Source of the DNA: Escherichia phage QL01
DNA: 64,000 bases
Sequence record: NC_028847.1
Reading direction: 5' to 3' (one strand)
Shown: piece by piece, positions 6,133 to 49,986 of the stretch
Layout: each line of letters starts with the position of its first letter
Numbering within the stretch: position 1 is the stretch's first letter
The notes under the pieces: generated by a model
Seen by the model: only the letters and a program-made list of their open reading frames with translations
Told to the model about the DNA's origin: nothing
The model's database searches: none
Position numbers and translations under genes: made by a program

Positions 6133-6699
6133 TTATGCAAAATGAATATCAGCATACTCAACAATAAAACTTTCAGGAACTACTTTAAAGGTGCCAAGGA
6201 ACACGATGTTATACAGCTTAACACCTTCTTCAACCCATTGGTCTGTGATGTAACCGGACATACTAGTGGTTTCATAAGTCGGACCATACTTGCAATTGTA
6301 TTCAAACGGTTTAGGTGAAACGAAAAAGACACCTTTACCTAATTTCCATTTGAAATCAACACCAACATGAGATTGGTCAATAGTTTCAACGTCTTGAGCT
6401 ACTACGCCACGGATATCATTGCTTTCACATACATACCCATCATGGGATTCAACTTCTTCAACTACAGGAGCGATGTATCCGGTAAATTCAGTCGATTCCA
6501 AGAATTTAGCACGCACATAAGCGAATTGAGTTTCAGTTTGACCATTTTTAGGAATGATACGCACTTTTACTTCAGAATTTTCTACACTGACACCTTCTTT
6601 AAGTTGGATACTAACAACTTCAACTAAACAGCCTGCAGCTTTTGAACGAGACTTTTTGGATACACGAACAATACCGCCGATATCGGAAATAGTAATCAT
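6133..6699 (-). CDS. hypothetical protein, paralog of 6773-7321
   Basis: 188 aa; C-terminus GYITDQWVEEGVKLYNIVFLGTFKVVPESF shared with neighbouring ORF; own early-type promoter. Confidence 0.55.
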   Translation of the reverse strand: MITISDIGGIVRVSKKSRSKAAGCLVEVVSIQLKEGVSVENSEVKVRIIPKNGQTETQFAYVRAKFLESTEFTGYIAPVVEEVESHDGYVCESNDIRGVVAQDVETIDQSHVGVDFKWKLGKGVFFVSPKPFEYNCKYGPTYETTSMSGYITDQWVEEGVKLYNIVFLGTFKVVPESFIVEYADIHFA

Positions 6700-6772: not shown

Positions 6773-7321
6773 TTAATTCAATACATTAACCACTGCACTA
6801 CGAGGTACTACACTAAAATCACCAGCATGTACAACGTTCAGAAGCTCAACACCGTCTTCAACCCACTGGTCTGTTACCCAACCACAGATAGGATTATCAA
6901 AAGGACGACGGATAGACACAGCAGCACACAGAAGGTCGGTAGGGTCTTGTTCTTCAACTTCTTGGAACAGGATGAACTCATCTTCATAAACCAGGGTTTG
7001 CTCAATTTTGTTATTGTCTAAACGACGGCCGTGGAGAATATAGGCTTTAGAGAACCACTCACTTTTGGCAAATTCTTCAACAATAAATTCGCCTTCACCA
7101 AAAACATCAGTCAGGGTTTTATGGCCGGAAATCAAGGCCTTAGTTTTAATTTCAGGTTCAACCAGTTTGTAGGTTTTGCCGATTTCGATAGTCTGAGTAG
7201 TCATAGTGGTTTCCTTAATTTCCAGTGGTTTAACAGGGCATACATAAGTGCTTAAAACATCAAAATCAATCAGTTTAGCTGCAGGATTTGGTGTATATTC
7301 AGGGTTATAATTAAATTTCAT
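6773..7321 (-). CDS. hypothetical protein, paralog of 6133-6699
   Basis: 182 aa; C-terminus CGWVTDQWVEDGVELLNVVHAGDFSVVPRS. Confidence 0.55.
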   Translation of the reverse strand: MKFNYNPEYTPNPAAKLIDFDVLSTYVCPVKPLEIKETTMTTQTIEIGKTYKLVEPEIKTKALISGHKTLTDVFGEGEFIVEEFAKSEWFSKAYILHGRRLDNNKIEQTLVYEDEFILFQEVEEQDPTDLLCAAVSIRRPFDNPICGWVTDQWVEDGVELLNVVHAGDFSVVPRSAVVNVLN

Positions 7322-20201: not shown

Positions 20202-20515
20202 CTCTTAGATTTAATTTTATCCAGTTCTTCTTGTATTTGCATTGTAACACATTTTTCTACATGAAGCGCCAGCTCTTCTTTTCGGTCTTCGGAAGGTGTT
20301 CCGAAATCAACCGACACTTTTCCATCTTTCTCAATAACAATATTCATCACATAAACGATGTGAGCAGTGCCATCGGGTAAAGTAAGCATAATTTCCTGCT
20401 TAACCGATCCCATTGACTTACGGATTATATCTAATGATTTCTCATAATAACGAGGGTCACTAGGACCCTCTTCGGTATCTTTAACAAAATTATCTAAATC
20501 AGATAAATCAGTCAT
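20186..20515 (-). CDS. hypothetical protein (gene 40 position)
   Basis: 109 aa between uvsX and 41. Confidence 0.4.
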   Translation of the reverse strand: MTDLSDLDNFVKDTEEGPSDPRYYEKSLDIIRKSMGSVKQEIMLTLPDGTAHIVYVMNIVIEKDGKVSVDFGTPSEDRKEELALHVEKCVTMQIQEELDKIKSKRWWKW

Positions 20516-21680
20516 CTAAATCCATCTCTTCTAAATCGCTTTCGATGTCAGCGGCGCTTTGGGTATTTCCGCCTAATTTAACAGCAACGTTCTTAGAGAC
20601 ACGAGAGTTAATAAGGTCATTTACCGCATCGTCAACTTCTTTAATAGAATTAATTGCACCAAGCTTATACTTATTCTCGATTGCTTCACGGAACGGGGCA
20701 TGTTTAAACAGCGGTCCCCAGAACTCGACACAATCGGTAGCTTTAGCACGCCATGCTTTTTCTTCTTGAACCATTTCGCCTGTGGTTTCGTCAAGGAATG
20801 CACGATTATACCAGCCAGCTTTAGGTTTCACGACAAAGCCAATATCAGTAGCCATTTCAAGCAATCCACTGAATGGGTCGATACCACCTTCGAAGTTAAC
20901 GGTGATAGGGAACGTTGATTTCTCTTTAACCGTACGAGATTTCTCAGCCTTCAGTGTGAAGTCATAACCAGTGAGCTCGGTACCATCTTTAACCTGACGT
21001 TTAGAGATAAAGAACACGGTAGAAGCAGAGTACAGAATACCAGTACCACCACCCATAATCTCTTTAGGATACATTCCACCAATTTCCATAGCCGTGTGGT
21101 TAATTGCTACACAAGGGATATCCTTGATGGTCAGATAAGGTGTTACGATACGGAACAGAGATTTCAGTGATTTAGCACGAGTCATATCACCTACAACTTT
21201 CTCGTTCAAAGCATCTTCGGTTTCTTTCTTAGAAGCAGTGTTACCGATGGAGTCGATAAAGATAATAACCTTTTCGCCACGAGTAATTTCTTCTAACTGG
21301 TTAGTCATATCAACTTTAAGCTGTTCGACTGACTGGATTGGTGTATGAACCACACGTTCCAAATCAACACCCATCGAACGGAAATAAGATTCTGAAGCAC
21401 CAAACTCAGAGTCATAGAACAAACAAATTGCGTCTGGATATTTCTTCATATATGCCGCAACCATGGTAAGTCCAAACAACGTTTTAAAGTGTTTAGATGG
21501 AGCAGCAAAGATTGTCAAACCTGATTGTAAGCCTGCATTCAACGCACCGCCCAATGCAATATTCAGCATAGGGATACGAGTAGGAACTTCGTCACGACCA
21601 TTAAACAATTTAGATTTGGTCAGGTCGGCGGTCATTTTAGAAGTAGAAGCTTTAATCAAACGGGATTTTAAATCAGACAT
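20508..21680 (-). CDS. uvsX: UvsX RecA-like recombinase
   Basis: 390 aa; RecA-fold motifs; N-terminus as T4 UvsX. Confidence 0.9.
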   Translation of the reverse strand: MSDLKSRLIKASTSKMTADLTKSKLFNGRDEVPTRIPMLNIALGGALNAGLQSGLTIFAAPSKHFKTLFGLTMVAAYMKKYPDAICLFYDSEFGASESYFRSMGVDLERVVHTPIQSVEQLKVDMTNQLEEITRGEKVIIFIDSIGNTASKKETEDALNEKVVGDMTRAKSLKSLFRIVTPYLTIKDIPCVAINHTAMEIGGMYPKEIMGGGTGILYSASTVFFISKRQVKDGTELTGYDFTLKAEKSRTVKEKSTFPITVNFEGGIDPFSGLLEMATDIGFVVKPKAGWYNRAFLDETTGEMVQEEKAWRAKATDCVEFWGPLFKHAPFREAIENKYKLGAINSIKEVDDAVNDLINSRVSKNVAVKLGGNTQSAADIESDLEEMDLDD

Positions 21681-21757: not shown

Positions 21758-22651
21758 TTAAAGGACCACGTCCTCATAACTTGGCATTTCGTGCTCAGAA
21801 TGGATGTGGGCACCGAAATAAATGAATTCAGCTAGACCAGGATGGAATACTAAACCGGGATTCTCATGATAAATGATATGAGGTCTTGATTTCAGAATCT
21901 GATAATATTCAACCTTACTCGGTTTGAATTTAATAATCTCTACATCAGGACGATAGTCTTCACGCTTAAATGAATCATTCGGATCGGTGATATAAAGGCG
22001 AGAACCTTCAGCCGCAGCTTGGTCTACAACTCTTTCGAATTGATAACATTTATCAGAGATACGGAATGGATGGAAAATACCATCAATTTTAATAGGCGCT
22101 AGGCCTTCAGAGTAACGCTCAATTACTGCCGGATTAATTACCTTTTGGTCTACAAAAATCTTATCAGAGGACGCACCTCGTGACACCAGGACGTCTTTCT
22201 GGCATTGATTCAGGACTGTGGTATAAATCGAACGTTCAACTGAGGACACGTCGGTATCAATAAACTCGTCGATATAATAACGAGGAACTTCAGGGTCCAT
22301 TGTAATGTTAAAGTTGAATTGTACAGTCTGAGTGCCATCATAACCTGTGATATCGGTTACCAATCCTGAGCAGTCATAGTATTCGATTAACGAATCAACA
22401 ACGAACTCGTTTTCAGACCAAAAATGTTTACGAGTTTCATAAGCATTTTCTTTATACCAAAGCGGTACAAAATTCAGTTCAGGAAATAATTCAATGCATT
22501 CTTTGATATCGCTCGAATTTCTAGGATAAGCCAGATAATCACCTGGGCAAGCACGGTTTAAATGGAGTTGAAAATTACCGTCCTTAAGGACGGCATATTC
22601 ACCTGTTTCGTAACTACGCATACTGAAAATAGGAACGATAAACAAACTCAT
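21758..22651 (-). CDS. hypothetical protein at beta-gt locus; candidate DNA glycosyltransferase
   Basis: 297 aa between uvsX and 42; does not resemble T4 beta-gt as remembered; function inferred from locus only. Confidence 0.35.
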   Translation of the reverse strand: MSLFIVPIFSMRSYETGEYAVLKDGNFQLHLNRACPGDYLAYPRNSSDIKECIELFPELNFVPLWYKENAYETRKHFWSENEFVVDSLIEYYDCSGLVTDITGYDGTQTVQFNFNITMDPEVPRYYIDEFIDTDVSSVERSIYTTVLNQCQKDVLVSRGASSDKIFVDQKVINPAVIERYSEGLAPIKIDGIFHPFRISDKCYQFERVVDQAAAEGSRLYITDPNDSFKREDYRPDVEIIKFKPSKVEYYQILKSRPHIIYHENPGLVFHPGLAEFIYFGAHIHSEHEMPSYEDVVL

Positions 22652-23346
22652 TTCAGGAATCCTCGAACGTAGTCAAAATCACGTTCAAATACGTGTGCAC
22701 TAACCATAGTATGGGAATACGTACCCAGACCAACACCACACTGTTCAGCAATAAAGGCCATCAGTTTACCCTGCAGATAGAAATCCAGCTGCATAACAAT
22801 AGCACAGTTCTGTGAACGCATATGGGTATGTGCATAAAGACGTCCATCACGAATATAATATGTCACTGAATCAGTACATGGATATTCTAAGGATTCGTCA
22901 GAATCAAGGAGGGCTTGGTCTTGTTCTTGGAGAATTTGGAACACAACTCGTCTTGAGTTAGGCTTCTCTTTAAGCTCTTTAAGTAAGGCTGGGAGTTGGG
23001 CCACAATTCTAGGTCCATAGAAAGTGTTGAAGTTTGCAGGCAATACGTCACTTTTCGGCTTATCAATGAACTTAGCAACATTAGGGTATTCCTTAAATGC
23101 TTCGGCGGCGTCAGTACCACCAGAAATCATAAACTTCCAGAAAGATTCGGCATAATCATAGTTGATACGATTAATACGAGGGTCGGTGAATTTATAGGTG
23201 CTTGCATCCAGTACTTCTACCGAAGCAGAACCAATTTCATAACAACGGCCGATACGAGAATCAACTGCAAACTGTGGAGCTTCCAGGATTTCTTCGTTCA
23301 TTTGCTTAAACGCGTTTTCAAAACTAACAGCGGTAATGTGTTTCAT
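22648..23346 (-). CDS. 42: dCMP hydroxymethylase
   Basis: 232 aa; thymidylate-synthase-like motifs SRRVVFQ and YPCTDSVTYYIRDGRLYAHTHMRSQN. Confidence 0.8.
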   Translation of the reverse strand: MKHITAVSFENAFKQMNEEILEAPQFAVDSRIGRCYEIGSASVEVLDASTYKFTDPRINRINYDYAESFWKFMISGGTDAAEAFKEYPNVAKFIDKPKSDVLPANFNTFYGPRIVAQLPALLKELKEKPNSRRVVFQILQEQDQALLDSDESLEYPCTDSVTYYIRDGRLYAHTHMRSQNCAIVMQLDFYLQGKLMAFIAEQCGVGLGTYSHTMVSAHVFERDFDYVRGFLK

Positions 23347-23879
23347 TTATTCACCTTATTTTCAATATATTCATTCAGACGTTTTAATTCTACCATATCG
23401 ACGTTAAGCAAGTTATTATGGCCGTCGTGATTTAAGATTTTAAACACGTTTTCAAAACATGTTTCATATTGCCGGATAGTTAGGTTGAACTCATCTTTGG
23501 TTAATTTAATAAGGTCATCTTCAAAGTCTTTATCCAGTGGATTACGGGTTAAAATAACCTCAATAATATTGAATTCAGATTTAAACCCTTTCCAATCTTC
23601 CAGTTCTACATAAGGGTCCATTTCACCACGAAGGAATCCAGAGTAAACAATATTACTAGGATACCCACGGTCTAAGATGTAGACAAAATTAGGGTCTAAA
23701 AACTTATACAACGTCTCGACTAAAGCCTTGTCATTATCAGTCCCTAATGAAATGCATTTGCCATTAATCTTTTTAGGGAAATCAATAAGACGATATTTCT
23801 TATCAGATAAAAGTGATTCAATTAAAGTAGACTTCCCGGAATTATCCGGGCCGTCGATAACAATGATTTTTGGTTTCAC
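23343..23879 (-). CDS. P-loop nucleoside/nucleotide kinase-like protein
   Basis: 178 aa; Walker A IIVIDGPDNSGKST at N-terminus, dNK/dTMP-kinase-like. Confidence 0.55.
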   Translation of the reverse strand: MKPKIIVIDGPDNSGKSTLIESLLSDKKYRLIDFPKKINGKCISLGTDNDKALVETLYKFLDPNFVYILDRGYPSNIVYSGFLRGEMDPYVELEDWKGFKSEFNIIEVILTRNPLDKDFEDDLIKLTKDEFNLTIRQYETCFENVFKILNHDGHNNLLNVDMVELKRLNEYIENKVNK

Positions 23880-24250
23880 GGATGATATGCCTTATAGGTT
23901 TCAAGAGTTCCTTCACGAACCATTTCTTTAAAGTGGTCAGGACGGATTGCTCGGTCATCGATGATAAAAGTATAACTCGGCTTATGTGTAAGCAGATTGT
24001 GATATTTCAATCCAATCTTTTCAAGGTTCTTAACTAATGCAGGAACTACTTCAACCAAGATTCGACCCGGGCCGCATGAAGTCATACCACGGGCAGTGAA
24101 CAAGGTAATCTCGTACCCTTCATCATAAAGCTTATTAATCATAGACACCATTTCGGTGTCCGGTTTAAAGTTTTCGTAATCACGGTCATCTTGCCAGTGA
24201 GTAATGGTATTATCGATATCAAAACACAGATGCATTAAATTTTCTTCCAT
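23876..24250 (-). CDS. HAD-superfamily phosphatase (small)
   Basis: 124 aa; HAD motif I FDIDNT, motif II LFTARG, motif IV IIDDRA. Confidence 0.55.
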   Translation of the reverse strand: MEENLMHLCFDIDNTITHWQDDRDYENFKPDTEMVSMINKLYDEGYEITLFTARGMTSCGPGRILVEVVPALVKNLEKIGLKYHNLLTHKPSYTFIIDDRAIRPDHFKEMVREGTLETYKAYHP

Positions 24251-25908
24251 TGTTTGTGGAGTTCGGTAGAACCTGTAGGTTTATATTTTACACCAGTTTC
24301 CTGGTCAAGCAAAACCCACTTATCAGGACAACGAGTGATAATTTGAGCCGTGATAGGGTCGCGAACTTCATCAACGAATTCACCTGTGATAAGCTTACGC
24401 TTACGAGGATGCCGCTTCAGCAGCACACTCAGTTGATATAGCCCATTGTAATAAGCGCCCAGAGCTTTCAGAGGGTTATTTTTAAAGTAACCTGCCAATG
24501 CCATCCAGATAACAGCAATCCAGAGCTTGTGCTTAAATGTACACATCGGAATATCATCTAAAGGCATAACCTTTTCAATATCAACGAATACACGAGTTCC
24601 GTTACGAGTTAAGCCACCCCATAGAGGGTCAGAGTTAAATTTGTCATAACCATCGATAGAATAAAGCACCTTAGCTTCATCATAAATCGCAGGGCCTTTA
24701 GAACTATTACCAAAATAACCACGTGGGTCGATGATTTTAATATTACCTTCGTCCGACAACATAATATTACTGTAGTGCGGGTCGCCATGAATAAGTTGGT
24801 ACGGTTCTTTATGTTCAGACAGAATTTCTAAGGCGTGACGAAGAAGTTTTTCTGGGTCGCCTACCTTGAAGTCGTTAACATGGGTAATACCCTGTGGAGC
24901 AAAGCCTTCAATCAATCCGGCAATAGAAGCATTACGAATAAGGACCTTGTCCAATACTTCTTTCTTAACATCAGAATACCATTGCTCATCGGACGGATTA
25001 TCGATAGTTCCACCGAACGAACGTAATGCACTAATAACCTTATAAACCATTAGGACTTTAGTTTCTTTAGACATAAACCGGTAGGCATCTGCCATGGTTC
25101 GACCAAAGATACGTTCCATTTTAATGAATTCACCTGGAGCAAAGTCTACAATGCTAGGAACGAATTCAGAATCAATAGAATTGTACCAATTGATTTCTTT
25201 AGATTGGATTTCTTTACCTAATTCGTTTGTAGGTACTTTAATAGCTAGATTCTCAGTGAACTCTAATTTATTAAATTCACGGTTAATTTCAGAATCTTCA
25301 TGGGCCTTAGCCAGTTTCAGTTTGTCACCAACATCAACTACAAAGTCTAACTTACGTTCAGTCAAATGGACCATTGAATCCAGGTTGTCAGCAAGGTCTT
25401 CACCATAATTAGAACGGTCGAAACCTGTCCAATTAGCCACCTGATACAAGCCAACTACGCCACCACCGGTACCAATTTCACGCAAGTACGGTTCTTCAAA
25501 TGTAAAACGGCAGTCAGTCCCATAGGTATAACAGTAGTCGTTATCCCACTCAACTTTATGACCTTCAGGAATAATATCACACCAGTTAAACAAGACATTG
25601 TGCCCAATGATATCTTCGGCAATGCAATCGATAGCATGAGCCGAACCATTGGCAACATCAACGTTACGAATAGTGAATTTAGGCTTATCACTATTAATCA
25701 TGTTAATGGATTTAATATAGCCTTTAACGAGGTCGTTAAATTTGCTGTGAATAACCAGAATAATTTCATCTGATTGATTACTATACAAATCATACAAATG
25801 TTTTAATACAGTATGTTGTTTGTAGTTAACCAGTACCTTCGGGATTTCGTTGGTAATTGGATACAACCGTGAGCCAAGACCCGCGCCTAAAATAACAACC
25901 TTTTTCAT
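24235..25908 (-). CDS. bifunctional sugar-1-phosphate nucleotidyltransferase / APH-like (anomeric) kinase
   Basis: Start set at Met11 (GAGGAA SD); N-terminal VVILGAGLGSRLYPIT...PKVLV, C-terminal LIHGDPHYSNIM and IIDPRGYFG. Confidence 0.65.
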   Translation of the reverse strand: MKKVVILGAGLGSRLYPITNEIPKVLVNYKQHTVLKHLYDLYSNQSDEIILVIHSKFNDLVKGYIKSINMINSDKPKFTIRNVDVANGSAHAIDCIAEDIIGHNVLFNWCDIIPEGHKVEWDNDYCYTYGTDCRFTFEEPYLREIGTGGGVVGLYQVANWTGFDRSNYGEDLADNLDSMVHLTERKLDFVVDVGDKLKLAKAHEDSEINREFNKLEFTENLAIKVPTNELGKEIQSKEINWYNSIDSEFVPSIVDFAPGEFIKMERIFGRTMADAYRFMSKETKVLMVYKVISALRSFGGTIDNPSDEQWYSDVKKEVLDKVLIRNASIAGLIEGFAPQGITHVNDFKVGDPEKLLRHALEILSEHKEPYQLIHGDPHYSNIMLSDEGNIKIIDPRGYFGNSSKGPAIYDEAKVLYSIDGYDKFNSDPLWGGLTRNGTRVFVDIEKVMPLDDIPMCTFKHKLWIAVIWMALAGYFKNNPLKALGAYYNGLYQLSVLLKRHPRKRKLITGEFVDEVRDPITAQIITRCPDKWVLLDQETGVKYKPTGSTELHKQWKKI

Positions 25909-25968: not shown

Positions 25969-26469
25969 TTAAATCTTATCTTTACCGATTTCAATACACT
26001 GTTCTATTGCCGCCGGTGCTTTGGTCTTGAGCTTATCGATTTGTTTCTTATAATCACGAGCTTTACCGAAGCTCTCGGTTTCGAGCATTTCGTAATAACG
26101 AGCCTCGTGGATGGAAATCTGTAGATTGATATGGTTTACGCACATCGCATACAGTTTCTGCTTTTTGTACAAATCATCTTGACGCTTCATTTCTGCCTGG
26201 TGTTTGGCTAGTACCGCTTCACGCTTAGACTCTTGTTCACGTTGGAATTCGATTTCCCTTTGAGCATATTTTGCACAGTTATTACCACATTGATTATTGG
26301 CTCGGGTGTACACAAGTCCAGAACCTGCACGGAATTTCATTTCGCCATCGAATTGTTTCTGTTCAGCTGCGATACGAGCTTTACCAACTTCATCAGCCGA
26401 AACTGCATCACCATATTGGACCGCGCAACCTGATAGGAGCATACTCATTGCGATAATTAACTTTTTCAT
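25969..26469 (-). CDS. putative lipoprotein with coiled-coil region
   Basis: 166 aa; signal peptide with lipobox LLSGC. Confidence 0.5.
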   Translation of the reverse strand: MKKLIIAMSMLLSGCAVQYGDAVSADEVGKARIAAEQKQFDGEMKFRAGSGLVYTRANNQCGNNCAKYAQREIEFQREQESKREAVLAKHQAEMKRQDDLYKKQKLYAMCVNHINLQISIHEARYYEMLETESFGKARDYKKQIDKLKTKAPAAIEQCIEIGKDKI

Positions 26470-26476
26470 AATATCC

Positions 26477-26614
26477 TCAATTAAAACAGTTATACTTAAT
26501 TTGTGCTATAAGAATAATCCATCCGATGATTAGTGTCGGAATCATTGGCGGAATTGCCACTGCCCAATAAATGGTAAAGGCAGTCATTATAAGAAATAAA
26601 ATAATTATTTTCAT
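26477..26614 (-). CDS. small hydrophobic membrane peptide (imm.1-like)
   Basis: Hand-called 45 aa MKIIILFLIMTAFTIYWAVAIPPMIPTLIIGWIILIAQ; ATGA overlap with upstream gene. Confidence 0.4.
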   Translation of the reverse strand: MKIIILFLIMTAFTIYWAVAIPPMIPTLIIGWIILIAQIKYNCFN

Positions 26615-26847
26615 TGCTTAACAATAATGATTTGTGCATTTGATTTACGTTCAGCGACGATAGCCCAGATTAAAGCCACTACCCAACCAATCATCGTCCA
26701 GCCTAACAGGAGATTAAGGAAGAAAATTCCGACATTACTACGAGTGCCTCGCAGAAGAGCCAGAATCCATGGTAAAAAGTAACCGATGAACATAATAACC
26801 AGAGAACCGAATCCTAAAACACCAGCACTAACGATTAAAGCTTCCAT
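26611..26847 (-). CDS. imm: Imm-like membrane protein (superinfection immunity)
   Basis: 78 aa, two predicted TM helices; immediately upstream of gene 43 as in T4. Confidence 0.5.
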   Translation of the reverse strand: MEALIVSAGVLGFGSLVIMFIGYFLPWILALLRGTRSNVGIFFLNLLLGWTMIGWVVALIWAIVAERKSNAQIIIVKQ

Positions 26848-47692: not shown

Positions 47693-48673
47693 TTATTTCA
47701 GAAGTGTAACTTCAGCGATTTCGCTCCAGTCATTTTTATCGGTGGCAATGAAGTCCGCCAGATAAAGAGCTGTACGTAATGATACGTTACGAAGACGAGA
47801 TACATTAGCCTTCATCCATGCTAAAGCTTGGTAAGTCTCGGCATCAGTCAGACCACGGTTTTGCATCATATCAGTGGACAGGATAACGTCTTCAACACGA
47901 ACCATAATCTCTTCGTTCGAGTGAACTCCGAGGTCTAAGTAAACTGAACGCGATACTAAAGCCTGGAGGTGTGGAGCAAGTTTAGTTCCACGCTCTAATT
48001 CACGGTCAATATCAACGTTGGTGATGAACACGATGGTGCCTTCATACTCAAATTCTTTATCGATATTTTTATCATCAAGATAAGAACTTGAAGTGCTCCA
48101 GCACACCTTACGTTTTTCACCAGTATCCAATGCTGCTTTTAACAGGTTCAGGATATCCATATCAGAGAATACATCAACATCATCAATAAGAAGAACACTA
48201 TTAGGGCCGCGGTTATTCCAAAGCTGCTCGTAAAGACCGATTCCACTAATCTTTCCGTTGATTGATTTATATTCGATAGTTTCATTTTCGTGGGCATTCT
48301 GTAATGCTTTATCCAAAGAATATGTTTTACCAATACCTGCGGCACCAGAGATGATAAGGGAACGAATTTTACCATCGATGATTCCATTAGTCATCATGTT
48401 CATTACTTTAAAACGTTTGTTAATGCGATGTTTCATTTCTTCAGCGGATTCAGTAACAACTGCAGGAGCTTCAGCACCTTCCATTTCAACGTCACATTTG
48501 AACACCCATACACCACGTTCAACACCATCAATCTGTACAAATACCTTACCATCACCGAGGTGAGCTTCGGATTCATGAATTTTATTAGGGAACCAGGTTT
48601 TACCTGAACTCATGAACGTACCGGAGATTACATTACCGCGATAGATACCTTTGTTGATTTTGATAGTTAACAT
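47693..48673 (-). CDS. AAA+ ATPase with N-terminal extra domain
   Basis: Start at Met49 because the longer ORF covers promoter 48711-48739; Walker A GAAGIGKT, Walker B LLIDDVD. Confidence 0.55.
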   Translation of the reverse strand: MLTIKINKGIYRGNVISGTFMSSGKTWFPNKIHESEAHLGDGKVFVQIDGVERGVWVFKCDVEMEGAEAPAVVTESAEEMKHRINKRFKVMNMMTNGIIDGKIRSLIISGAAGIGKTYSLDKALQNAHENETIEYKSINGKISGIGLYEQLWNNRGPNSVLLIDDVDVFSDMDILNLLKAALDTGEKRKVCWSTSSSYLDDKNIDKEFEYEGTIVFITNVDIDRELERGTKLAPHLQALVSRSVYLDLGVHSNEEIMVRVEDVILSTDMMQNRGLTDAETYQALAWMKANVSRLRNVSLRTALYLADFIATDKNDWSEIAEVTLLK

Positions 48674-48710
48674 TATATTCTCCATTTCACTCAGTAGATT
48701 TGATAGGTCC

Positions 48711-48739
48711 ATAATAACATGCTCTACGAAGGTGTAAAC
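48711..48739 (-). promoter_or_regulatory. early-type promoter cassette
   Basis: GTTTAC, 17 nt, TATTAT. Confidence 0.5.
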
Positions 48740-48762
48740 TCTTTTTTGCACTAAACCCAAAA

Positions 48763-48782
48763 AAGGAACCCGAAGGTTCCTA
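48763..48782 (-). terminator. intrinsic terminator
   Basis: Stem AAGGAACC/GGTTCCT, UUCG loop, U6 tract. Confidence 0.6.
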
Positions 48783-49022
48783 AATTGCGCTCCAAAAATT
48801 ATGGAAGCGTATATCATTTATAGCCCAGTTAACAAATTGTCTTGTCTGTTTAGGCGTAGGTTTGCACACGTACTTGATATTGACTCGACGTCCGGTTTCT
48901 TTACAGACAGCTTCAAGATACCAACGTCGGGTTTTATGGGGTCTTCCATATGATAAAAAGACCTTCATTTCTTCGTTATCGATAATAAGAGTTGTGGTTG
49001 TCAAGGTATACCTCTTCAACAA
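48780..49022 (-). CDS. hypothetical protein
   Basis: 80 aa; stop lies inside terminator stem. Confidence 0.4.
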   Translation of the reverse strand: MLKRYTLTTTTLIIDNEEMKVFLSYGRPHKTRRWYLEAVCKETGRRVNIKYVCKPTPKQTRQFVNWAINDIRFHNFWSAI

Positions 49023-49986
49023 ACTTGTCCCAGAACTTCATATCTACCTTAGCAGGCATACCGTTCTTAGATGCCTGGATGGCCAGGACTTCAACCAGGT
49101 CAACAGTGTCTTCAAGAAGTTCTTGGACCTCTTTAAATGGAAGTTCACCGGCCTTAATCAGCTTAATGATAGAGGCTTCGCGCAATGGGAATACCAGGTC
49201 GCCTGTTTGGTAGATTTCCAACAATTGATATCCAGCCCGATAAGCATGGCTCAGAGCTTTCCAATCGATACCTTCATTAGCTTCAGCCTTACGAGCACGT
49301 TCGCCATATTCAGCATCAAGCTTATTCAGAGATTGCTTGAGCTCGATTAAAGACAAAGTAGTTTGGTACTTACGTCCTAGAACAGTATAGAACGTTTGAG
49401 GGCCTGTTTTCTCATGGTTATGGAATACCCATTCACAGAACTCATTTTCAGGGAGTCTGTGTTTGATATCTTCTACCTTAGTACGACGAAGTCTATCAGG
49501 GATTCCTTCTTGATAGTCAACCCACTGTTCAGGAATCTGGTTAACGATTGCCAGTACACCACGCAGAGCAGCCAGACGAGAACCTTTAACACCATATTTA
49601 GAAGCTTGCTTACGGACGTACCCTAAATAGGCTTTCATGTTGGTTGTATAGAACCGTGAACGATTGTCTTGGATAAATTTCCATACATCAGGTAAATCAG
49701 ATTTAACCACCATTTCAGGTGGAGTGTGGAGCATATCCAGAGCAACGGTTTCGCCTTCAGCAGCCAGTTTAAAGAAATATTTCAGACTGTAAAGCTCGTG
49801 GTCAACATCATCTTTAGTGTTTTTGGAAGCAGTGTTATTCGTATTCAGGTTGGTATGGTTCATAGCCGTACCTAACAGAATATCACGCGGATGTGGAACA
49901 AAGATTTCTTTAAAATCAACATCAGATTCTGGAGTACTTGTTCCATAAAGGTGGCTACCGAAGTAGCCTTTCATAACTGTTCTCAT
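48976..49986 (-). CDS. Pol-beta-superfamily nucleotidyltransferase-like protein
   Basis: 336 aa; N-terminal GSHLYGTSTPESDVDF fits the G[GS]-x(9-13)-DxD nucleotidyltransferase signature. Confidence 0.5.
   Translation of the reverse strand: MRTVMKGYFGSHLYGTSTPESDVDFKEIFVPHPRDILLGTAMNHTNLNTNNTASKNTKDDVDHELYSLKYFFKLAAEGETVALDMLHTPPEMVVKSDLPDVWKFIQDNRSRFYTTNMKAYLGYVRKQASKYGVKGSRLAALRGVLAIVNQIPEQWVDYQEGIPDRLRRTKVEDIKHRLPENEFCEWVFHNHEKTGPQTFYTVLGRKYQTTLSLIELKQSLNKLDAEYGERARKAEANEGIDWKALSHAYRAGYQLLEIYQTGDLVFPLREASIIKLIKAGELPFKEVQELLEDTVDLVEVLAIQASKNGMPAKVDMKFWDKFVEEVYLDNHNSYYR

Follow-up and report, generated by a model that had tools for sequence, protein, structure and literature searches.

The stretch of DNA analysed here (the window) comprises 64,000 nucleotides from Escherichia phage QL01 (NC_028847.1), a Dhakavirus. 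On its minus strand, an ORF of 297 codons with an ATG start occupies positions 21758..22651; a gap of 77 nt separates it from uvsX (20508..21680), which lies downstream. We predict that its product is a divergent GT-B enzyme, the base-proximal (first) arabinofuranosyltransferase acting on 5-hydroxycytosine. This is clearly a real gene, far beyond a chance ORF. In the ORF list of the window, the opposite strand holds no competing ORF of at least 50 aa, and the G+C content of the gene agrees with that of its neighbours. Its product has a 100% identical counterpart in Escherichia phage UGJNEcP3, annotated as hypothetical, and matches PHROG 3891, a family annotated as of unknown function, over residues 1-296 (E 1e-158). 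Homologs are present in 349 phage records, and a profile search with the family among 1.84 billion proteins matched 240 representative clusters. The start of the ORF and the end of the preceding thymidylate-synthase-family gene, which stops at TGA, overlap by 4 nt (ATGA; junction CTGAAATGAGT), and the five co-oriented genes running from 25938 down to 21758 all overlap or abut, forming a compact block. A promoter and terminator scan gave matches at chance level only.

The gene that overlaps the start of the ORF (22648..23346, minus strand) lies at the position of T4 gene 42. The earlier note on this DNA placed the 297-aa ORF between uvsX and gene 42; the ORF and its position stand, but the label of the neighbour does not. 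The product of 22648..23346 contains a Pfam Thymidylat_synt domain, shares 79% identity with RB69 gp48 over the whole length and just 25% with T4 gp42 over 159 aa, and matches PDB entries 9iqu and 9iqc with E-values of about 1e-125. In the alignment it bears a D169N and N177D signature (E. coli ThyA numbering). The motif at ThyA position 169 is RSQN in the window protein, RSND in T4 gp42 and RSVD in the phage's own td; in E. coli ThyA, which has Asp169, it is RSCD. The phage sequences in the alignment were taken from sequence records. Asn also occupies this position in five other ThyA homologs linked to the glycosyltransferase gene. RB69 gp48 uses a bound flavin, and O2 as the oxygen source, to convert dCMP into 5-hydroxy-dCMP (5hodCMP), and Asn in place of Asp169 (E. 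coli ThyA numbering) has been proposed as diagnostic of the synthase (PMC13326640). Judged by sequence, 22648..23346 is the ortholog of this 5hodCMP synthase, a predicted FMN/O2-dependent dCMP 5-hydroxylase, and not a dCMP hydroxymethylase.

This assignment changes the expected sugar acceptor. The earlier note had proposed that the transferase places a non-glucose sugar on hydroxymethylcytosine (hmC), which a gene 42 dCMP hydroxymethylase would supply. The locus does equal that of T4 beta-gt, with uvsX on one side and a ThyA-family gene on the other, and the DNA of RB69 was first reported to contain arabinosyl-hmC (PMC6024577). However, the RB69 modification has been re-determined as arabinosyl-5-hydroxycytosine, in which an ether oxygen rather than a hydroxymethyl group joins the arabinose to C5 (PMC13326640), and a second paper terms the older assignment erroneous. 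In addition, a tblastn search with T4 gp42 matched only the counterpart of 22648..23346, the D169N gene, in the whole closest Dhakavirus genome, and the adjacent enzyme is much nearer to a proven 5hodCMP synthase (79%) than to T4 gp42 (25%). The hmC acceptor must therefore be given up, and we consider this version scarcely credible. Because the neighbour is an ortholog of the 5hodCMP synthase, the acceptor would instead be the 5-OH of 5-hydroxycytosine, with no methylene bridge.

Three more genes complete the block. The first (23343..23879, minus strand) encodes a thymidylate-kinase-like (TMK-like) P-loop kinase of the RB69 gp45 type, which matches PHROG 761 ‘thymidylate kinase’ (E 2e-39), gives weak Pfam P-loop matches and is 36% identical to its HY126 homolog. 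It is followed upstream by a HAD-type phosphatase gene (23876..24250, minus strand; PHROG 1238, weak Pfam HAD matches) whose product, 62% identical to the HY126 counterpart, is the ortholog of HY126 AfhF and RB69 gp51. The last gene (24235..25908, minus strand) codes for a bifunctional sugar-1-kinase/UDP-sugar pyrophosphorylase, ortholog of HY126 AfhE and RB69 gp52:53, with Pfam NTP_transferase (residues 13-110) and APH (356-427) domains; PHROG 4098 and the alignment to the HY126 homolog (43% identity) both begin at residue 11. The mechanical ORF, of 567 aa, extends to 25938, but homology and the UGJNEcP3 annotation (CDS of 1674 nt) place the start at Met11 (25908). These phosphatase and NTP_transferase/APH genes, 1.2-3.3 kb upstream of the transferase ORF, are the sugar-nucleotide cluster that had been noticed earlier. 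AfhE reportedly acts as an arabinose-5-phosphate 1-kinase and UDP-arabinose pyrophosphorylase, and AfhF is a 5-phosphatase that converts arabinofuranose-1,5-bisphosphate into arabinofuranose-1-phosphate (PMC13326640, citing He et al. 2026). The 297-aa ORF thus shows both contextual features of its family, in that its neighbour is a ThyA homolog with the Asn169 of 5hodCMP synthases and it co-occurs with UDP-arabinofuranose genes (AfhE-like and AfhF-like). Where RB69 and HY126 carry an arabinose-5-phosphate isomerase, the window has a 166-aa ORF (25969-26469, minus strand), flanked by the AfhE-like gene and an imm-like gene (26611-26847). Its product begins with a signal of the lipoprotein type (MKKLIIAMSMLLSGC) and gave no significant Pfam match.

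Comparison with the RB69 locus, which the earlier note had suggested, identifies the window ORF as the counterpart of two annotated genes: RB69 gp47 aligns with residues 1-179 (69% identity) and gp46 with residues 184-297 (63%). According to Lee et al. (NAR 2026, PMC13326640), a sequencing error has divided what is a single gene into RB69 genes 46 and 47; the gene is intact in the window, whereas the RB69 reference record splits it in two. The unsplit 299-aa ORF of HY126 (XAN60474) is 67% identical to the window ORF over 297 aa, and Thanatos TH1_063 is 51% identical. This full-length homology to named members places the protein in the RB69 gp46:47/DLP3 gp79 family (PHROG 3891), and by this measure it is the ortholog of RB69 gp47+gp46, HY126 XAN60474 and Thanatos TH1_063. 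RB69 gp46:47 and DLP3 gp79 have been published as the putative ‘arabinosyltransferase 1’, with Dhakaviruses named among the carriers of the syntenic cluster (PMC13326640). The suggestion of a candidate novel transferase is therefore not supported, since its family, predicted role, synteny and presence in Dhakaviruses already appear in that paper. As the gene family and the pathway were already described in 2025-2026, our finding is a rediscovery in which the acceptor is corrected from hmC to 5-hydroxycytosine. The arabinosyl-5-hydroxycytosine pathway is reportedly also treated by Mahler et al. 2025 and He et al. 2026.

The predicted structure of the 297-aa protein contains two Rossmann-like beta/alpha/beta domains separated by an interdomain cleft, the architecture of the GT-B superfamily, so that structure prediction and structural search, the check proposed in the earlier note, yielded a glycosyltransferase fold. 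The best structural matches are bacterial retaining GT-B enzymes of the GT4 type, namely the sucrose-phosphate synthase 6kih, BshA, MshA, PimA and WaaG, with alignments of 240-265 residues at 3.0-3.5 A and 8-11% identity; the window protein is about 60-100 residues shorter than these enzymes. Placement in a known glycosyltransferase family by sequence was tried and rejected. A Pfam scan gave nothing at E<=0.1, including no Glycos_transf_1 and no GT4 N-terminal domain; a search of PDB sequences with the family profile gave no glycosyltransferase at E<=10; and no profile match linked the protein to the CAZy GT4-like/Glycos_transf_1 sequence family, which is recognised by Pfam GT domains and an EX7E-type C-terminal motif. 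BLASTP found no similarity to T4 beta-gt, in line with the earlier note, and the protein shares with the T4 beta-gt family (GT63) neither sequence homology nor, judged by its neighbour, an hmC acceptor made by a gp42-type hydroxymethylase. Sequence homology to the group of RB69 gp3, 9iqz and DLP3 gp76-77 was likewise not found: BLASTP against RB69 gp3 showed no similarity, and hhalign between the two families gave a probability of 0.1%, although the homology search yielded no more than 5 cluster representatives of the gp3 family, too few for bridging. On the predicted model, the 297-aa protein is a very divergent GT-B enzyme whose fold is visible only via structure prediction. Residues R197, K246 and H270-P271-G272 are conserved in the family, with Glu at 275 in the majority, and these may resemble NDP-binding positions. 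The invariant residues are R12, K23, R74, R124, R197, D200, D223, N225, K246 and H270.

A GT-B fold is not specific to transferases. The top PDB matches in Foldseek are non-hydrolysing UDP-GlcNAc 2-epimerases, which also have this fold, and the ORF could in principle encode a sugar-activating enzyme, either a UDP-pentose pyrophosphorylase or an NDP-sugar 2-epimerase interconverting UDP-ribose-type and UDP-arabinose-type sugars. This Dhakavirus carries no arabinose-5-phosphate isomerase, as judged from the window and the closest complete genome, which would suit such a role, and TH1_063 was reported as a UDP-xylose pyrophosphorylase that makes UDP-xylose from UTP and xylose-1-phosphate in vitro, in an assay where TH1_060, the true nucleotidyltransferase homolog, was inactive (PMC12838424). 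No other in vitro activity of a family member was found in the published work. However, this report is hard to reconcile with the predicted GT-B fold, and the window protein gave no match to Pfam Epimerase_2. We regard a sugar-activating function as very unlikely and continue with a glycosyltransferase.

GenBank labels for homologs of the ORF include several instances of ‘RNA polymerase binding protein’ and a few of ‘glycosyltransferase’ (records H27, H32, H158, H181, H194, H218), and the neighbouring 5hodCMP synthase is variously labelled thymidylate synthase or deoxycytidylate 5-hydroxymethyltransferase. Given the GT-B fold and the D169N signature, the labels at odds with them look wrong.

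The gene content of this Dhakavirus is also informative for what it lacks. In tblastn searches of the window and of the remainder of the closest complete Dhakavirus genome, no match was obtained with RB69 gp3 (the second arabinosyltransferase), gp55 (the arabinose-5-phosphate isomerase), gp50 (peptidase U32 family) or gp49. The same searches found no homolog of T4 alpha-gt (GT72) or beta-gt, in agreement with the earlier statement that the 47-55 locus has no alpha-gt, and Pfam scans of 20 further window ORFs revealed no glycosyltransferase domain. The 297-aa ORF is therefore the sole glycosyltransferase candidate. Its earlier designation as the best positional candidate is reinforced by its orthology to the putative first arabinosyltransferases and by the AfhE/AfhF-like genes upstream. 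RB69 gp3, the HY126 glycosyltransferase (PDB 9iqz) and DLP3 gp76/gp77 are second and third arabinosyltransferases, which act on already arabinosylated DNA. Apart from having no detectable sequence relationship to the window protein, the gp3 type differs in length (366 aa versus 297 aa) and in locus (between rIIA and gene 39), and it is absent from the window and from the closest Dhakavirus genome. The rIIA-gene 39 interval measures about 800 bp in the window. Homologs of gp3 in the phage collection form two groups only, one of records with at least 95% identity and one from Acinetobacter or Tegunavirus phages with less than 60%.

Since a second arabinosyltransferase of the RB69 gp3 type is absent from the closest complete Dhakavirus genome, we predict that a single arabinose is added and that the base replacing cytosine in the DNA is mono-arabinosyl-5-hydroxycytosine. 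A precedent for one sugar exists in Thanatos, which has this glycosyltransferase family only and carries a single pentose on O-linked cytosine (PMC13326640, PMC12838424). We further infer a dependence on the host, because a phage without an isomerase of its own must obtain arabinose-5-phosphate from host enzymes (KdsD or GutQ). No chemical analysis of DNA from the genus Dhakavirus was found in accessible sources. Relative to the clusters of RB69, DLP3, HY126 and Thanatos, the Dhakavirus version is minimal, lacking the isomerase, the U32 gene, gp49 and the second transferase; its TMK-like kinase gene is upstream of the synthase gene, whereas in RB69 it is downstream of the transferase gene.

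A Peptidase_U32-family gene, absent from the window, is part of the hypermodification cluster in several relatives (RB69 gp50, L002:6493-7662; Thanatos TH1_065, L011:6927-8063; and L006:9049-10125), where it scores above the Pfam threshold at 40-43 bits. In E. coli, cytidine and uridine of rRNA and tRNA are hydroxylated at C5 independently of O2, and this requires the U32 proteins RlhA and TrhP. By analogy, the phage U32 gene might stand in under anaerobic conditions for the 5hodCMP synthase, which depends on O2. In the list of Lee et al. it appears only as a ‘sugar or heterocycle reductase’ (PMC13326640).

Taken together with the tight overlaps of the five genes, the ATGA overlap with the D169N ThyA gene and the AfhE-like and AfhF-like genes directly upstream, these data make it probable that the base-proximal glycosyltransferase of the arabinosyl-5-hydroxycytosine pathway is the product of this ORF. 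Structure prediction supplies the fold, and the activity, the sugar and the form of the acceptor are inferences. In the proposed pathway, the ThyA-family neighbour would hydroxylate dCMP at C5 to give 5-hydroxy-dCMP, as its 79% identity to RB69 gp48 suggests, and the AfhE-like and AfhF-like enzymes would convert arabinose-5-phosphate into UDP-arabinofuranose, as their HY126 counterparts reportedly do. The ORF product would then move arabinofuranose onto the 5-OH of 5-hydroxycytosine, giving an O-glycoside of the ether type, with the C-terminal Rossmann domain presumably binding the UDP-sugar and the N-terminal domain the acceptor. By analogy with T4, that acceptor would be 5-hydroxycytosine already within DNA, which is the least secure step.

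The published biochemistry does not fully agree with this last step. Purified individual glycosyltransferases, supplied with UDP-Araf or UDP-Arap, did not arabinosylate DNA containing 5-hydroxycytosine (5hoC-DNA), and the experiments of Lee et al. could not distinguish between a mononucleotide and DNA as the substrate of the first arabinosylation (PMC13326640). TH1_063 did not transfer sugar to DNA, dCMP, dCTP or cytosine, all of them acceptors without a 5-OH (PMC12838424). Among the accessible papers, we found no positive transferase assay for any member of the PHROG 3891 family, and the first transfer is the only step of the pathway for which a published positive assay was not found.

The association of synthase, transferase and kinase genes extends well beyond Dhakavirus. 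The order ThyA(D169N), transferase and TMK-like kinase recurs with distant members of the family (31-45% identity) in a 356-kb phage contig, a 383-kb contig and a marine contig of 154 kb, whose ThyA homologs all carry D169N, and the three genes have this order in Thanatos too. Outside the T4-like phages, the triad was found in Rhizobium phage RHph_I46 (Pootjesviridae; L016:3174-5609), where a ThyA homolog with the RSQN motif is followed by a gene scoring 89.7 bits against the family profile and then by a kinase with the P-loop EGLDRTGKDT. Just upstream of that triad lie genes for a gp1-type dNMP kinase and an NTP pyrophosphohydrolase. In the related phage RL38JI, the first sugar is galactose, and gp215, encoded between a kinase and the synthase, was named ‘galactosyltransferase 1’ (PMC13326640). 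The presence of the module in Pootjesviridae and the position of RL38JI gp215 make the family look like a general base-proximal transferase for 5-hydroxycytosine, irrespective of the sugar. In two jumbo-phage contigs, a Flavodoxin_2 gene (NAD(P)H-dependent FMN reductase-like; L005:1-523 and L007:6426-6932) is located at, or no more than 1 kb from, the start of the hypermodification block, about 6 kb (L005) and about 0.3 kb (L007) upstream of the D169N ThyA homolog. Such a neighbour would fit the need of the hydroxylase for reduced flavin.

The transferase is also naturally fused to an additional domain of about 200 aa in nine representatives from distant relatives. This TMK-like domain, with the P-loop EGFDRIGKD[TS], is C-terminal in eight of them (P0202, P0208, P0209, P0214, P0228, P0241, P0243 and P0245) and N-terminal in the ninth (P0218). 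An hhalign comparison of the fused domain with the neighbouring TMK-like kinase family gave a probability of 96.7% (E 4e-10, 135 columns), and two of the fusions have weak matches to Pfam Thymidylate_kin. Seven proteins (P0131, P0143, P0148, P0153, P0169, P0175 and P0193) instead start with a HAD-like domain that contains DFDG and GDD motifs and for which there is a weak Pfam match (E 0.0037); profile comparison detected no link between this extension and the window's own HAD protein. Single-sequence phmmer searches with the kinase and HAD proteins of the window against the fusion proteins returned nothing, and profile methods were needed. The conservation of the module across phage families and the transferase-kinase fusions are new here, as is the minimal gene content of Dhakavirus.

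These observations bear on when the sugar is added. It is possible that the ORF product arabinosylates 5-hydroxy-dCMP before replication, that the TMK-like kinase phosphorylates the resulting arabinosyl-dCMP, which may be too bulky to be accepted by the T4 gp1-type kinase, and that the polymerase incorporates a glycosylated dCTP analogue. The retention of the module in Straboviridae, jumbo-phage contigs and Pootjesviridae would be consistent with this order of events, as would the nine natural fusions, whose added domain shares homology with the family of neighbouring kinases. Host base-excision glycosylases attack free 5-hydroxycytosine in DNA, and a route that avoids it would be advantageous. 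The gp1-type dNMP kinase is retained in these phages and, in RB69, already phosphorylates 5hodCMP (PMC13326640), so that a second, TMK-like kinase is otherwise unexplained. The inactivity of single glycosyltransferases on 5hoC-DNA points in the same direction (PMC13326640). The strongly acidic character of the protein (pI 4.8, net charge -19, compared with a pI of 9.05 for T4 beta-gt) gives a weak hint as well, but the gp3 family and UvsX are likewise acidic, and net charge is too weak a feature for choosing between DNA and a nucleotide as the acceptor.

On the other hand, expression of gp48 and gp159 puts 5hodC into E. coli plasmid DNA, indicating that the unglycosylated triphosphate is a polymerase substrate, and the second and third arabinoses go onto DNA in vitro (PMC13326640). 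A gene fusion reflects a common pathway, not necessarily successive steps, and fusions of the transferase with HAD-like domains exist as well. To our knowledge, all known phage DNA glycosylations are post-replicative, following the T4 paradigm. On balance, we consider glycosylation of the nucleotide unlikely but a serious minority possibility; if true, no earlier case of a DNA precursor being glycosylated before replication would be known. Transfer onto 5-hydroxycytosine within DNA remains our preferred reading, and the module and its fusions provide a concrete, testable hypothesis on where the first transfer occurs, on DNA or on a nucleotide.

From a biological perspective, cytosine hypermodification governs the escape of T4-like phages, both therapeutic and model ones, from restriction enzymes, CRISPR-Cas and DNA-glycosylase defences, and it also decides if sequencing or engineering of their DNA is feasible. 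Mono-arabinosyl-5-hydroxycytosine would be expected to shield the phage DNA from restriction and CRISPR nucleases. It is the predicted product of the smallest known version of the cluster, and this cluster would then be a convenient minimal set of genes with which to reconstitute the pathway. The analysis also corrects annotations such as ‘thymidylate synthase / dCMP hydroxymethylase’, ‘hypothetical protein’ and ‘RNA polymerase binding protein’.

Elsewhere in the window, two adjacent motB-family paralogs were found at 6133-6699 and 6773-7321 (minus strand), and an AAA-type NTPase gene lies beside an RlaP-like nucleotidyltransferase gene at 47693-49986 (minus strand); as far as checked, both pairs are ordinary T4-like accessory genes. 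Outside the window, in the genome of the closest relative, UGJNEcP3, three genes in a row bear the annotation of Alt-like RNA polymerase ADP-ribosyltransferases (L012:36973-43236).
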